64,000 nucleotides of DNA from positions 4,160,001 to 4,224,000 of the forward strand of contig CM000153.2 of the NCBI GenBank assembly GCA_000004695.1, written 5' to 3'. Position numbers and translations under genes: made by a program. Below the pieces are notes generated by a model. It did no database searches. It was not told the DNA's origin and was given only the letters and a program-made list of their open reading frames with translations. Each line of letters opens with the position of its first letter. Positions within the stretch are counted from its first letter, which is position 1. The stretch is from Dictyostelium discoideum (taxonomy: Eukaryota). This document shows, one piece after another, positions 18,618 through 37,221 of the stretch.

Positions 18618-18705
18618 ATGTTTTTCATTAAAAATAGAGTAGTTATTTTGATTTTCTTTTTATTTATTTGTTTCAAATTGAATCAAAGCCTAATTCAATC
18701 AGAAT
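18618..18705 (+). CDS. Tandem receptor-like gene, unit 1, exon 1 (signal peptide).
   Basis: MFFIKNRVVILIFFLFICFKLNQSLIQSEC, then a GT donor in phase 1. Homologous to exon 1 of units 2-5. Confidence 0.5.
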
Positions 18706-18817
18706 GTAGATATTTTAAAAATATTTTTATTTTTTTAAATTTTTTTTTTTTTGGGATTTGTTTTTAACCACTTTTTTTTTTTTTTCATTTTTTCATTTTT
18801 TTCACGGTCAAACAAAG

Positions 18818-19040
18818 ATGAATGTTCATTTAATTTATTAAGTAAAATATTAAATGTTTCGCTTGAATACAGTAGGGATTCAAAAAATAGATATGATTTT
18901 TGTGGTTCAAGTAAAAAAGGTTTTGTATCGATGGTATGTGATGGGGAAAATGATTTCATTTCATCTATATCATTAGGTAGTAATAGAAGTACAATATTAT
19001 CATCTTCCGATTTTAATTGTTTTTCTTCGATTAGTATTAT
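18818..19040 (+). CDS. Unit 1 exon 2 (Cys-containing N-terminal module, 223 nt).
   Basis: ORF 18751..19110 frame. Colinear with unit 2 exon 2. Confidence 0.5.
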
Positions 19041-19147
19041 GTTTGTATTTAAATTTTTTAATTGTCATTATTATTATCATTCTTATTATTATTTTTTTAC
19101 AAATTATTAATCAAAAAAAAAAAAAAAAAAAAAAAAAAAAAAAAAAG

Positions 19148-19495
19148 ACAATTATATCTTAATTATAAATTTGAAAAAAATTTTTTATATGGATTTTCAA
19201 AAATAATTCCACACTTTTTATCATATTCTACAGATGAATCATTATTTGATTTGGATTTTAATATTGATAAAATGATATTAATAGATAGATTAGTTATTAA
19301 AAAATTAAAAATAAAAAAAAATTATAATCTTTATTTTTCAAGTTTAAAAAATGTCAGTATTTTCGAACTTGAATATGGACCATCAAATTTTCAAATTAAT
19401 TATATAAATGATTTATTTGAATTTAAAAATTTCATATCAATAAATATTTTTTCAAGTAGTATACCTTCAATGAATAATATAAATATTCTAGAATT
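19148..19495 (+). CDS. Unit 1 exon 3 (LRR-like).
   Basis: ORF 19062..19499 frame. GTAAGT donor at 19496. Phase-2 boundaries. Confidence 0.5.
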
Positions 19496-19660
19496 GTAAG
19501 TAAAAATAATTTTATTTTTTTTTTATTTTTCAAATTAATAATAATAATAATAGTAATAAAAATTATTAATTAATGATAAATATTAATTTTTTTTTTTTTT
19601 TTTTTTTTTTTTTTTTTTTTTTTTTTTTTTTTTTTTTTTTTTTTTTTTTTTTTACCGTAG

Positions 19661-19822
19661 AGTTTTAAATTTATTACCAAGTTTTAATTTAAAATCATTT
19701 TCCAACTTTTCAACATTTTCAAATGTTGAGTCTATAAATTTAAATCCTACAAATCCATCAATGATTTTCCCATTCCCAATAGGATTGTGTAATCTTAATT
19801 TTAATAATAGTTTGGGAAGTTT
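19661..19822 (+). CDS. Unit 1 exon 4 (LRR-like, ...NPSMIFPFP...).
   Basis: Acceptor ccgtag, GTAAGT donor, phase 2 on both sides. Confidence 0.45.
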
Positions 19823-19913
19823 GTAAGTTTTCTTTCTTTTTTTTTTTTTTTTTTTTTAATTTTTTTATTCTAATAATTTTGATAAAATCCACATTCTAAT
19901 ATAAATTATAAAG

Positions 19914-19985
19914 AGAAATAAACTACCAAATAGATAAACCATTAGATTTTATAGACCTTTCAGCATTGGGAAATTTATTTTTATT
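19914..19985 (+). CDS. Unit 1 exon 5 (72-nt LRR unit).
   Basis: Conserved 72-nt exon in all five units. Confidence 0.45.
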
Positions 19986-20074
19986 GTAAGTTTTTTTACT
20001 AATATTCATTATCATTACATTTTCTTTAATTTATTAATTAATTTATTATTATTTTTTTTTTTTAAAAAATAAAG

Positions 20075-20158
20075 TTTAATGCCAAATGTGGGACCTTTAT
20101 TTAATGTGGATGGTGAATTTCCTTTTATTAATATGATTAATAGATTTTATATAAGATT
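20075..20158 (+). CDS. Unit 1 exon 6.
   Basis: ...PNVGPLFNVDGEFPFINM..., GTAAGT donor. Confidence 0.45.
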
Positions 20159-20253
20159 GTAAGTGTTTTTTTATATTGGTGAAAAACATTTACATTTAGA
20201 TTTTAATTATTTTAAATTTAATTAATTTTTTTTTTTTTTTTTTTTTAAATTAG

Positions 20254-34017: not shown

Positions 34018-34026
34018 GTAAGTAAT

Positions 34027-34130
34027 AAAAATAATAATAATAATAATAATAATAATAATAATAATAATAATAATAATAATAATAATAATAATAATAATAA
34101 TAATAATAATAATAATAATAATAATAAAAG
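34027..34130. repeat. (AAT)n intronic microsatellite, about 100 nt (unit 5, intron 2).
   Basis: Direct. Confidence 0.85.
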
Positions 34131-34186
34131 TAATTTTAATACTTAATAATATCATTTTAATAATATCTTTTATTATTTAAATAAAG

Positions 34187-34537
34187 AGACATATTTTTTA
34201 ATTATAAATTTGAAAGAAATTTTTTAATTGGGTTTTCAAATAATTTAGATAGTTTAAATTCACGTTCTTCAGACGAATCATTAATTGATATGGATGTCAA
34301 TATTAACAAAACAATAGCAATTAGATTTTTAAGAATTTATCAATTAACAATTAAAAGTGACTTTAATATTTATTTTTCAAAATTTGTTAATGTCAGAATT
34401 TTTGAAATTTACACACTCCAATCAAACTATCAAATTAATTATTTTAATGATTTGGTTAACTTAGAATGTAATTTTTATATGGTTTCATTTTCTTTAAATA
34501 ATATACCATCAATGAATAATATACAATCAAATAATTT
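34187..34537 (+). CDS. Unit 5 exon 3 (includes ORF 34290..34541).
   Basis: 351 nt. GTAAGT donor. Confidence 0.5.
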
Positions 34538-34651
34538 GTAAGTTTTTATTTCTATTTTTTTTTTTTTTTTTTTTTTTATTTTTTTTTTTTTTTTATTTTT
34601 TTTTTTAAATATCAAATAATACTAAATTAATAACCTAAATTTATTAAATAG

Positions 34652-34792
34652 AAATATAAAGTTAAATTCAAATTTTAATATTGAATCATTTTCCAACTTA
34701 TCAACATACACAAAAATAGGTACTATAGAATTAACTCCAACAGATCCATCAATGATTTTCCCATTTCCATTCCTTCCTTCTGTTAAATCATT
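34652..34792 (+). CDS. Unit 5 exon 4.
   Basis: 141 nt. The following intron carries (TTA)n plus a unit-specific insertion of about 230 bp. Confidence 0.45.
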
Positions 34793-35195
34793 GTATTTAT
34801 TATTATTATTATTATTATTATTATTATTATTATTATTATTATTATTATTATTATTATTATTATTATTATTATTATTATTATTATTATTACTATTGTTGGT
34901 ATTGTTGATACCACCACCACTATTATTCAATTTTTGTTGTTGACAATGACTACATAAATTCCTATTGGTTAATAATAATTGATAAACATTTTCAATAGAT
35001 CTTGTAATTTCTTTTATTGATAATTTAATCTCTTTAATTTCTTTATTTTGAATTTCTAATTTTTCTGATAAATTTTCATTATCTTTATCTTTTTTATGTG
35101 TCATTTTTTTTTTTTTTTTATTTTGTTATTATTATTATTATTTTGTTATTTTTATTGACTATTGATTTATTTTTAACTATTATTATAATATAAAG

Positions 35196-35267
35196 AACAA
35201 TAAATTATCAAATAGATAAACCATTGGATTTTATTGATTTATCTAAATTTGATAATCTATTGTTGTT
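35196..35267 (+). CDS. Unit 5 exon 5.
   Basis: 72 nt. GTAGGT donor. Confidence 0.45.
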
Positions 35268-35354
35268 GTAGGTATTTTATTTTTAAATATTTTTCTTTTC
35301 TAAACTTTTCTAAACTTTTAACTTACTTTTTTTATAATTTATAATTATTAAAAG

Positions 35355-35441
35355 AAAAATACCAAATGTTGGAGTTTTATTTAATATAGATGGTGAATTA
35401 CCATTCATTAATATGCAAAATATGGAAAATATTTATAATTT
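35355..35441 (+). CDS. Unit 5 exon 6.
   Basis: 87 nt. GTAAGT donor. Confidence 0.45.
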
Positions 35442-35528
35442 GTAAGTTTTTTTATTTATTTATATCCTCGTTTTCATTGTAATTAAGGTATTAATTTTTA
35501 AATTATTTTACATCTTTTTTTCAATTAG

Positions 35529-37221
35529 AGAGTTTTCAAATGGGAAAATTAATTATTTAAATTTTACAAATTTACCACCCAGTTTACATTATTTAACAAT
35601 GGAAAATAATGGTATGACAGGTACGATACCAACTTGGTATCCAAATAATTTTTCAATGCTTTTTCTAAAGGGTAATAAGTTGACAGGAGAGTTTGATGAA
35701 AATTGGTATAATGATGATTTTGATATTAGCGATAACTATATTGATATTTATCTTCCATCATGTTTTAAATGTCATTATTTACAACCATCGATTAGCAGAC
35801 CAATATCTGGTAATAGATTTAAAAATTTCGACCCAAATAATTTAGAACCATGTTTAAGCATAGATTTAAATCTTTCATATAATAATTCCACTGATCAATT
35901 ACTATTGTATGGTAGTGATCTTGGATTTCCAACATCAATCATGATATTAGATAACCCAATTTTAGTATTTGATTATGGTGAACAATGCAAAGAAATTAGA
36001 ATTTTTAAGCCTAGATGGAAGATAGGAGAAGTACCAAAAGCAATTAATGTTACATTTCCTTTTTTACCACAAGGTCAAAGAACGTTTGAAATCTCTGCAT
36101 ATAATGAATTTTTACCACAAATCAGTAGTATAATTAGATATTCAGATTATTTTATTATCAGTGGTAAATACTTTGCATACAATCAGAGTGTAACTACTGT
36201 TTTAATTTCAAATCATTCATGTTCAATTATAACAAGTAATTTCAATGAAATTCAATGTTATCTTTCAAATTCAAATCAAATCATTAATAATGAAGAATTA
36301 ATTACAAGTATTATTCAAGTTATGAATGTTTCAAGTACATTTAATTTCAGAGTGAATCAAGCATGTAATGGTAATAATTGTCCAATCGCAGATTGTAATA
36401 AATATGGTGAATATAATTATGAAAGTGGTGTTTGTGATTGTTATTCAAATGAATGGAGAGGCTATTCATGTGAATTAAAATCATTAAATTGTTTAAGTAA
36501 TGATTGTAGCGGTAATGGTTATTGTAATAATATCATTGGTAAATGTGAATGTAATACAAATAGAGTATTCGATGATTGTAGTGGTATATTATGTAATAAT
36601 GGTCATGGTTGTTTTAATGGAGGTAATTGTAATTTTCAAAATGGAATTTGTAATTGTTCATCCAAATGGATCGAAAGTTCAGGATGTGCAACACCCAAAC
36701 AATCAATTGATTCACAACAATTAGTACAAATAGAAAATGATCAAATACTAACATTAATTGGTTGGTTTGGTAATATTAATATATTTTTAACAATATTAAT
36801 CGATGGTAAAATTTGTGACATCATTTCCAATGATAATGAAACCATTCAATGTATTCCACCATATTATCCGTGTGATTTCATAAAGACCTCATCATTAGAA
36901 CTATCAGTTTCTCAAAATAATTACATATGGAATGGAATTTATAATCCAATATTTATCAATGGTTGTAGTAATAGTAATGAAGGCAGTAGTAGTAGTGTTG
37001 GTGGCAATAGCGATTCTTCATTACCATCACCATCATCATCATCATCATCATCCAATAACCCAAATTTAATTAGTCTATTCATTTTGTTATTCCTAATTAT
37101 ATTGGTTTTGTTAGGTTTTGTTTTTCTTAGAAAATTAATTATAAAAAATAATTATTTCCGCTATAACAACCTTAATACCAATGAAAATGAAGTCAATATA
37201 TTTTTAAGAAATATAAACTAA
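35529..37221 (+). CDS. Unit 5 exon 7 (LRR, EGF-like repeats, TM). The tail is frame-divergent and shorter.
   Basis: ORF 35599..37221 extended to the acceptor aattag at 35526-35528. Confidence 0.7.

Follow-up and report, generated by a model that had tools for sequence, protein, structure and literature searches.

The stretch of DNA analysed here, referred to as the window, comprises 64,000 nucleotides (nt) of Dictyostelium discoideum chromosome 4 (assembly GCA_000004695.1, contig CM000153.2, positions 4,160,001 to 4,224,000) and contains a tandem array of genes for predicted leucine-rich repeat (LRR) surface proteins. A repeat search of the window revealed five direct repeats between positions 18618 and 37221, arranged head-to-tail and all on the + strand, and each of the five units is closed by an open reading frame (ORF) of 540-571 codons on this strand. 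The spacing between unit starts is 3650-3750 nt, and 4136 nt from unit 4 to unit 5, which is due to the length of intron 4 in unit 5 (34793-35195; about 400 nt compared to the usual 140 nt or so). No further copies of the family were found elsewhere in the window. An earlier interpretation made from the letters of the DNA alone, hereafter the sequence-only reading, had proposed a five-unit head-to-tail array at this place, and the direct repeats together with the gene models bear this out.

Gene models of the five units

The gene models were obtained by threading deposited proteins of an AX4-like strain (GCA_054883475.1) onto the DNA of the window with GT-AG introns. Complete models with seven exons and exact translation were recovered for four of the five units (1, 2, 4 and 5), and splice-site projection showed that GT donors and AG acceptors are kept at homologous positions across all five. 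Blind enumeration of GT-AG chains was rejected as a source of models since it returned many equivalent ones, and exact threading was used instead. The shared seven-exon plan and the exon lengths given by the sequence-only reading proved nearly exact when compared to the threaded models. Its start codons were also close to those of the models, although in unit 2 the model starts at 22511 and the position named earlier, 22505, is a second in-frame ATG two codons upstream. The units and their exons are as follows (aa, amino acids):

18618..21976, + strand: unit 1, gene DDB_G0286209, 899 aa; P0025 translates exactly
18618-18705, 18818-19040, 19148-19495, 19661-19822, 19914-19985, 20075-20158, 20254-21976, + strand: unit 1 exons (88/223/348/162/72/84/1723 nt)
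22511..25732, + strand: unit 2, gene DDB_G0286329, 896 aa; P0028 translates exactly
22511-22589, 22665-22887, 22968-23318, 23406-23546, 23673-23744, 23826-23903, 23986-25732, + strand: unit 2 exons (79/223/351/141/72/78/1747 nt)
26251..29457, + strand: unit 3, probably defective; splice sites projected, automated model of the sister assembly 878 aa
26251-26332, 26396-26621, 26724/26754-27074, 27143-27283, 27452-27523, 27606-27689, + strand: unit 3 projected exons 1-6; exon-7 frame open from 27694
29884..33172, + strand: unit 4, gene DDB_G0286211, 909 aa; P0029 translates exactly
29884-29965, 30041-30263, 30356-30703, 30791-30931, 31074-31145, 31228-31305, 31387-33172, + strand: unit 4 exons (82/223/348/141/72/78/1786 nt)
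33633..37221, + strand: unit 5, gene DDB_G0286217, 882 aa; P0030 translates exactly
33633-33714, 33795-34017, 34187-34537, 34652-34792, 35196-35267, 35355-35441, 35529-37221, + strand: unit 5 exons (82/223/351/141/72/87/1693 nt)

All four named AX4 genes are annotated as hypothetical, and translation of the window reproduces three AX4 proteins exactly (DDB_G0286329, DDB_G0286211 and DDB_G0286217). The older AX4 models are shortened or differently spliced forms of the same seven-exon plan. P0002 has alternative exon 2/3 sites in unit 2, P0014 covers only the last 573 aa of unit 5, and P0018 uses other exon 3 and exon 7 acceptors in unit 4, plus a doubtful 42-nt in-frame intron (32991-33032). 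This 42-nt 'intron' of DDB_G0286211, which is unused by a newer model of identical sequence, is probably an annotation artefact. Intron 4 contains a long (TTA)n/(ATT)n microsatellite in all units but the first (unit 2, 23550-23665; unit 3, 27288-27445; unit 4, 30936-31064; unit 5, 34797-34894).

The GC content is about 22 % in the window and 17-24 % in the array region, which also contains long homopolymers and microsatellites. In such a repetitive AT-rich region, five units or their identical tracts could arise as an assembly artefact. However, an independent long-read chromosome-level assembly (GCA_054883475.1, AX4-like ACTFIT) contains a locus of 23.3 kb, L006, which equals window positions 19878-43207 at 99.8 %, with only 2 mismatches and 44 gap columns that are all differences in homopolymer length. 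The same unit structure is also present in other strains. A collapsed AX4 assembly behind the five-copy count was rejected because L006 reproduces the locus. From this agreement it follows that the array is not an assembly artefact and that its copy number, identical tracts and lesions are real; the chance that an artefact explains them is negligible.

Protein architecture and family

The products are predicted to be type I single-pass membrane glycoproteins of the secretory pathway. Their sequence features comprise a hydrophobic N-terminus, one transmembrane segment at about residues 830-869, 16-19 N-glycosylation sequons, 33-35 cysteines and a tail of 23-40 aa that includes an acidic motif and ends in K-L-I/V-N/D-L. 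The chain begins with a signal peptide, a Cys cap and an LRR region of about 13 repeats, followed by a small beta-sandwich (the patch, see below). Next come two TIG-like domains, the first of them a sandwich, with four to five EGF-like repeats between them. The C-terminal part consists of a Ser/Asn-rich stalk, which varies in length and is probably glycosylated, the single transmembrane helix and a short tail. Pfam matches and topology agree with the earlier description of receptor-like surface proteins with LRRs, EGF repeats and a membrane anchor.

The Pfam model LRR_ComC (PF24141), scored on four proteins, namely those of AX4 units 2 and 4 and other-strain orthologues of units 1 and 3, reached 74.7 (unit 2), 58.0, 67.6 and 60.3 bits, compared to a cut-off of 27. 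In P0001, a close orthologue of unit 1, LRR_ComC, TIG and EGF_TEN were found. The IPT/TIG match scores 18-32 bits (cut-off 20.9), with at most two TIG stretches per protein, and LRR_ComC dominates the ectodomain. The model Beta-sand_ComC_2nd (PF24143) scores 27.1 bits in unit 3 (cut-off 27) and 20-22 bits in units 1, 2 and 4, and overlaps the TIG match. The Cys-rich repeats visible in the alignment match EGF_TEN (PF25024) with an E-value of 1e-9. Judged by these ComC-derived domain models, the family is ComC-like, and thus the family that the sequence-only reading did not recognise by name can be given one.

ComC ('communication mutant C') has been described as 'Has EGF domains, S+T, group 4 only', where S+T stands for signal plus transmembrane (PMC4931340). 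It is the sole studied member of the family, and its mutants aggregate aberrantly (PMC2873529). The array proteins resemble it in the LRR_ComC match far above the cut-off, in the weaker ComC beta-sandwich and EGF matches, in having a signal peptide and a transmembrane helix, and in their limitation to group-4 Dictyostelium. They differ in being shorter (about 880-910 aa) and in forming a tandem array, and the two were compared via Pfam domain models only.

A word-indexed profile search found full-length relatives in D. discoideum, D. citrinum and D. dimigraforme only, and an exhaustive profile search returned 74 representatives at E<1e-30. All of the 20 representatives looked up are 'EGF-like domain-containing' hypothetical proteins of group-4 Dictyostelium. 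ComC itself was not found among the named members of the 20 top superfamily clusters. A full-text literature search found no papers naming the gene or UniProt IDs of the array.

In a profile search of the PDB, plant LRR receptor ectodomains were the best matches (AT5G25930 and BRI1, E=1e-16 to 5e-19; also TMM), covering only the last LRRs (profile positions 314-411). Further profile matches were to HSL1/HAESA-type kinases (E=1e-15 to 1e-9). The fold search of the PDB placed the BRL2 ectodomain at the top (E=2.7e-6), followed by the IPT domains of MET, plexin and CSL, with low TM-scores (template modelling scores) except for generic LRR and IPT matches. The plant-type LRR consensus noticed earlier in exon 7 is thereby supported in both sequence and fold. 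An AlphaFold2 (AF2) model of unit 4, with a mean predicted local distance difference test (pLDDT) of 60.5, contains an LRR solenoid at about residues 60-420 with a pLDDT of 75-92, and the next 70 residues or so are of moderate confidence.

Copy number in other genomes

The syntenic locus was compared in four further assemblies, in which the following numbers of units were counted:

D. citrinum: 2 units
'cf. discoideum' FIY: 5 units
D. discoideum FIW: at least 6 units
D. discoideum FIR: at least 7 units, one with a premature stop

With five units in the window, copy number ranges from 2 to at least 7 across genomes, so the between-strain comparison suggested by the sequence-only reading did reveal variation in copy number. 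Within the D. discoideum group, substitutions in the flanking DNA amount to 2.3-7.6 % (4.0-4.5 % directly upstream in FIR, 2.4-4.6 % downstream in FIY), and the distance to D. citrinum is 6-12 %. Between strains, orthologous units are 2.5-9.7 % apart. Isolates labelled D. discoideum or 'cf. discoideum' are thus 2.4-4.6 % away from AX4 in the flanks (12688-18463 compared to L003; 37537-43134 compared to L004). This seems high for conspecific strains and may mean deep lineages or cryptic species.

Gene conversion of the TIG-EGF-TIG tract

The sequence-only reading described most of exon 7 as more than 95 % identical between units. This applies to a TIG-EGF-TIG tract of about 0.93 kb, which is 94-100 % identical, and to that tract only:

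20750-21688, + strand: homogenised TIG-EGF-TIG tract, unit 1
24500..25432, + strand: homogenised TIG-EGF-TIG tract, unit 2
28150-29082, + strand: homogenised TIG-EGF-TIG tract, unit 3
31898-32830, + strand: homogenised TIG-EGF-TIG tract, unit 4
36034-36966, + strand: homogenised TIG-EGF-TIG tract, unit 5

The nucleotide distances of the three parts of the gene are as follows:

Exons 2-6: paralogues in one genome (unit 1 compared to the others) 28-37 %; orthologues within D. discoideum 2.5-10 %
Patch: paralogues between types 29-46 %; orthologues within D. discoideum 3.8-7.3 %; between species 28-33 %
TIG-EGF-TIG: paralogues in one genome 0.6-4.9 %; orthologues within D. discoideum 5.2-5.3 %; between species 11 %

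The TIG-EGF-TIG tracts of the two D. citrinum copies are only 0.6 % apart and 11 % away from D. discoideum. Synonymous divergence (dS) between these copies, CIT_1 and CIT_2, is 0.92 in the LRR part and 0.99 in the patch, and drops to 0.017 in the TIG-EGF tract, where dS between species is 0.23-0.31. The tract groups by genome, whereas in the LRR exons and the patch the grouping follows array position, and the exon-7 alignment contains genome-specific residues common to all copies of one genome.

Traces of individual exchanges are also present. Units 2 and 3 share an identical run of 441 nt (24555-24995 = 28205-28645), and units 2 and 4 share one of 387 nt (24805-25191 = 32203-32589). Near 24538, the pattern of variable sites shifts from units 1 and 2 against 3, 4 and 5 to unit 1 against 2, 3, 4 and 5, and unit 3 shows unit-1 states at 24996-25138. 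A GENECONV-style permutation gave p=0.0002 for the pairs 2-3, 2-4, 2-5 and 3-5. The mosaic nature that had been suggested for unit 2 is supported by the switch in site pattern, the 441-nt run and the permutation result.

The near-identity of the tract could alternatively have arisen without any conversion, by strong purifying selection on recent duplicates, which would be consistent with its low ratio of non-synonymous to synonymous substitution rates (dN/dS) of 0.23-0.54. However, synonymous divergence between the D. citrinum copies has been erased as well, genome-specific substitutions occur in all copies, and mosaic breakpoints are seen. Since the dS of 0.017 compared to 0.92, the genome-specific residues and the mosaics exclude purifying selection alone, a history without conversion is very improbable. 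The cross-species distances and dS values strengthen the case that gene conversion homogenises part of exon 7, and its confinement to the TIG-EGF-TIG tract of about 0.93 kb is well supported by these sequence comparisons.

The variable patch

Directly upstream of the homogenised tract lies a patch of 55-58 residues, for which the sequence-only reading had distinguished two types, A and B. Three were found (A1, A2 and B), and B has sub-variants:

20579..20749, + strand: patch type A1 (unit 1, 57 aa), making up the greater part of the first small beta-sandwich that follows the LRR C-terminal cap
24326..24499, + strand: patch type A2 (unit 2, 58 aa), first 20 residues equal to A1 (to about 24386), then unique
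27985..28149, + strand: patch type B (unit 3, 55 aa), with a nucleotide distance of 45-46 % between B and A
31733-31897, + strand: patch type B, sub-variant B2 (unit 4)
35869-36033, + strand: patch type B (unit 5)

The A1 and A2 patches have their first third in common and then diverge, with a nucleotide difference of 28.7 %. In the AF2 model of unit 4, beta-strands at residues 429-477 (pLDDT 60-76) directly follow the LRR C-cap helices, and the patch, which corresponds to these strands, is therefore most of a small beta-sandwich domain rather than a loop. The patch is also not the localised variable part that it had been taken for, as exons 2-6 differ by 28-37 % between unit 1 and the others and by 10-17 % among units 2-5.

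In every genome of the exon-7 alignment, four of them from the D. discoideum group, the patch type tracks array position (1 = A1, 2 = A2, later = B). A1 is present in unit 1 of FIR, FIW and FIY, and A2 is kept in their unit 2 genes. In D. citrinum, unit 1 has a diverged A1 form and unit 2 is B-like. The presence of the types in all strains by position, together with their D. citrinum counterparts, identifies them as old fixed paralogue differences and not alleles.

This bears on the proposed likeness to polymorphic recognition loci, according to which the array would be a self/non-self (kin) recognition locus like tgrB1/tgrC1, with the patch as the allelic specificity determinant under balancing or diversifying selection. 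The array proteins are indeed surface proteins with TIG-like domains, and copy number differs among isolates. The patch has a pN/pS of 0.73-0.94 and a dN/dS of 0.7-0.95, the latter being two to three times that of most neighbouring regions (0.25-0.64, mostly 0.25-0.4). It is thus elevated, as the sequence-only reading had led one to expect, but exceeds 1 only in close orthologue pairs with tiny counts (e.g. 5.5 non-synonymous and 0.5 synonymous differences); the pairwise ratios above 1 rest on 5-15 non-synonymous and 1-3 synonymous changes. A Fisher test of the patch against its neighbours was significant for one species pair only (p=0.02-0.04). Based on these sequence comparisons, the patch evolves fast, in a manner that is either nearly neutral or partly diversifying.

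The expected polymorphism between strains was not observed, since the patch types are common to all strains compared. Patch orthologues within D. discoideum differ by 3.8-7.3 %, similar to the 2.3-7.6 % of the flanks, so there is no excess strain diversity, and hyper-polymorphism, considered at first sight of the strain differences, was rejected after this flank control. The array also has no head-to-head receptor/ligand pair, as all units are on one strand. Like the array proteins, TgrB1 and TgrC1 are Dictyostelium single-pass surface proteins with IPT/TIG folds from large, variable and genome-clustered families (PMC4931340). The contrast drawn earlier, that tgr genes use IPT/TIG domains rather than LRRs, is misleading because the array proteins carry TIG-like domains too. 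Nevertheless, the Tgr ectodomain consists of IPT/TIG repeats, compared to an LRR solenoid with one to two TIG-like domains here, and the array differs further in lacking strain hyper-polymorphism among the four to five genomes sampled and a divergently transcribed receptor-ligand pair. A role of the patch types as kin-recognition alleles is therefore quite improbable.

Damaged copies and C-terminal tails

A single intact plan for all five units, as had been assumed, holds for units 1, 2, 4 and 5. Unit 3 has lost its intron-6 acceptor by a deletion of about 135 nt that had been overlooked. The affected features are:

27690..27753, + strand: intron-6 remnant of unit 3, with the deletion junction between 27734 and 27735 (from sequence, translation and orthologue alignment)
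37213..37221, + strand: C-terminal lesion of unit 5, where an A-run has lost 1 nt compared to FIY_5 (from nucleotide alignment and frame translations)

Compared to the orthologues FIW_3 and FIR_3, and aligned also to units 2 and 5, unit 3 lacks the 3' part of intron 6, the AG acceptor and the first 85 nt or so of exon 7, which encode one LRR. After the normal GTAAGT donor at 27690, it reads '...cattgtaatta' followed by 'tggtacgatacc...', and read-through past the donor meets an immediate TAA at 27691. No open seven-exon chain with standard splice sites was found for unit 3 under the criteria used, and its frame is restored by cryptic donor/acceptor pairs only; candidate cryptic acceptors lie at 27754, 27761 and 27846. 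Unit 3 is probably a pseudogene, or a variant without one LRR.

In unit 5, the loss of one A near 37215 moves the stop seven codons forward and removes the conserved ...KLIDLSS end. The same sequence is present in the independent assembly, as its protein P0030 translates exactly from the window. The 'frameshifted tail' reported earlier for this unit is hence correct for its last residues, whereas the remainder is a third tail class that is conserved in FIY_5 and adds to the two classes described before. The patch and tail peptides quoted by the sequence-only reading are present in the translations of the window.

The sixth unit of strain FIR (FIR_6; L002 18490-20049) has a premature stop in the stalk; the transmembrane helix would therefore be absent, leaving a secreted form or a pseudogene. 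Repeats were also observed in the coding sequence, namely an (AGT)47 poly-Ser run in the unit 3 stalk (29081-29221), a 42-nt repeat present 2.3 times in the unit 4 stalk (32826-32920) and a long poly-Asp/(Gly-Asp)n expansion in the cytoplasmic tail of FIW_4 (L001). With such coding microsatellites, the lengths of stalk and tail would vary by replication slippage.

Neighbouring genes and a second cluster

The flanking genes are ordinary. Upstream, at positions 8200-12200 of the window, a 2OG-Fe(II) oxygenase is encoded by two to three paralogues in tandem (ORFs at 8526-9290 and 9776-10846, with similar sequence once more at 11584-12176), and tandem copies are also present in other strains. Downstream, 38019-44183 encodes a Mot1/BTAF1-like SNF2 ATPase with HEAT, DUF3535, SNF2 and Helicase_C domains. 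In AX4, the AX4-like ACTFIT assembly (L006), FIY and D. citrinum, this gene bounds the array on its 3' side. In other strains, paralogues of about 45-50 % identity form a second cluster about 120 genes away on the same chromosome (ACTFIW_012886-012890, ACTFIU_003098-003101, ACTFIR_011445). Some of the encoded proteins are shorter, with 525-608 aa, and contain only the LRR and beta-sandwich parts.

Discussion

The best explanation of the locus is that ComC-family genes on D. discoideum chromosome 4 form a lineage-specific tandem array, in which segmental conversion maintains a common stalk below paralogue-specific heads and whose products would have a role at the cell surface. A probability of about 0.72 is assigned to this interpretation. 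Units are duplicated and lost, with unequal crossing-over as the most likely mechanism of these copy-number changes, and repeated conversion is restricted to the tract of about 0.93 kb. The LRR exons, patch and tails escape conversion and retain position identities older than the split of D. discoideum and D. citrinum. Some copies decay, such as unit 3 by the splice-site deletion, unit 5 by the C-terminal frameshift and FIR_6 by the premature stop. The LRR and beta-sandwich parts may thus serve as paralogue-specific binding heads on a common stalk, and, judging from the architecture, the proteins could act as adhesion or signalling receptors or ligands at the surface during development, like their relative ComC. 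Since they have no enzymatic domain, they would signal through partners.

Several points weigh against this interpretation. Its functional part relies on architecture and family name, and the ComC-like assignment on Pfam domain models. Beta-sand_ComC_2nd reaches its cut-off in unit 3 alone. The EGF-like repeats share the Cys spacing of teneurin/tenascin EGF repeats, but their EGF_TEN scores of 36-38 bits are below the curated Pfam cut-off of 65 in every unit, and no other teneurin domain occurs in the array proteins. The pLDDT of the AF2 model is below 50 across the TIG/EGF part, and because this half is unreliable, only the LRR and patch secondary structure was used. The counts for FIR and FIW are lower bounds, as the array ends beyond the DNA compared. 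Finally, the sharp 5' conversion boundary could reflect selection or a simple barrier of 45 % divergence.

Plant receptor clusters offer a further comparison. Plant Cf/Hcr9-type clusters of receptor-like proteins (RLPs) are tandem arrays that evolve by unequal crossing-over and patchy conversion. The array proteins resemble the RLPs of tomato Cf-9/Hcr9 and the ectodomains of LRR receptor-like kinases (BRI1, BRL2, HSL1) in their LxxNxLxGxIP motif and as best PDB matches in sequence and fold, and, like RLPs, have no kinase domain. They could accordingly be innate-immune or prey-sensing pattern-recognition receptors whose LRR heads bind bacterial molecules, and a tandem cluster that varies in copy number and evolves by birth-and-death and segmental conversion would be consistent with this. 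However, only the last few LRRs show the similarity, which spans no more than about 60-100 residues and may be convergent, and this indicates resemblance rather than membership in a plant receptor family. The membrane-proximal part consists of TIG and EGF domains, and the LRRs are the protected part of the array, whereas they are shuffled in many plant clusters. No link of the array genes to bacteria or sentinel cells was found, including in the literature search by gene ID, and the aberrant aggregation of ComC mutants is a developmental phenotype (PMC2873529). An immune or prey-sensing function is therefore considered unlikely.

A related and rather doubtful idea is that of a modular repertoire. 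Selection would keep the LRR and beta-sandwich heads (A1, A2, B1, B2 and others) distinct, and conversion would enforce a common TIG-EGF stalk because the paralogues act together in cis or share a co-receptor, with isolate-to-isolate changes in the copy number of type B tuning the recognition of bacteria, prey or neighbouring cells. If true, the sharp, species-conserved conversion boundary at the junction of patch and TIG would be a selected feature.

Returning to the interpretation as a ComC-family array, its behaviour is usual for tandem receptor families and opens no long-standing question. Nevertheless, the locus is a clean natural case of segmental concerted evolution within a single exon, in which a tract of about 0.93 kb is homogenised per genome and the adjoining binding domains retain identities that predate the species. 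Four hypothetical D. discoideum genes gain complete models and a family assignment, and a fifth copy is flagged as damaged. The ComC-type LRR/TIG/EGF proteins form a large superfamily that is specific to group-4 Dictyostelium and almost unstudied, and this copy-number-variable array is a tractable place to ask what the LRR heads bind.

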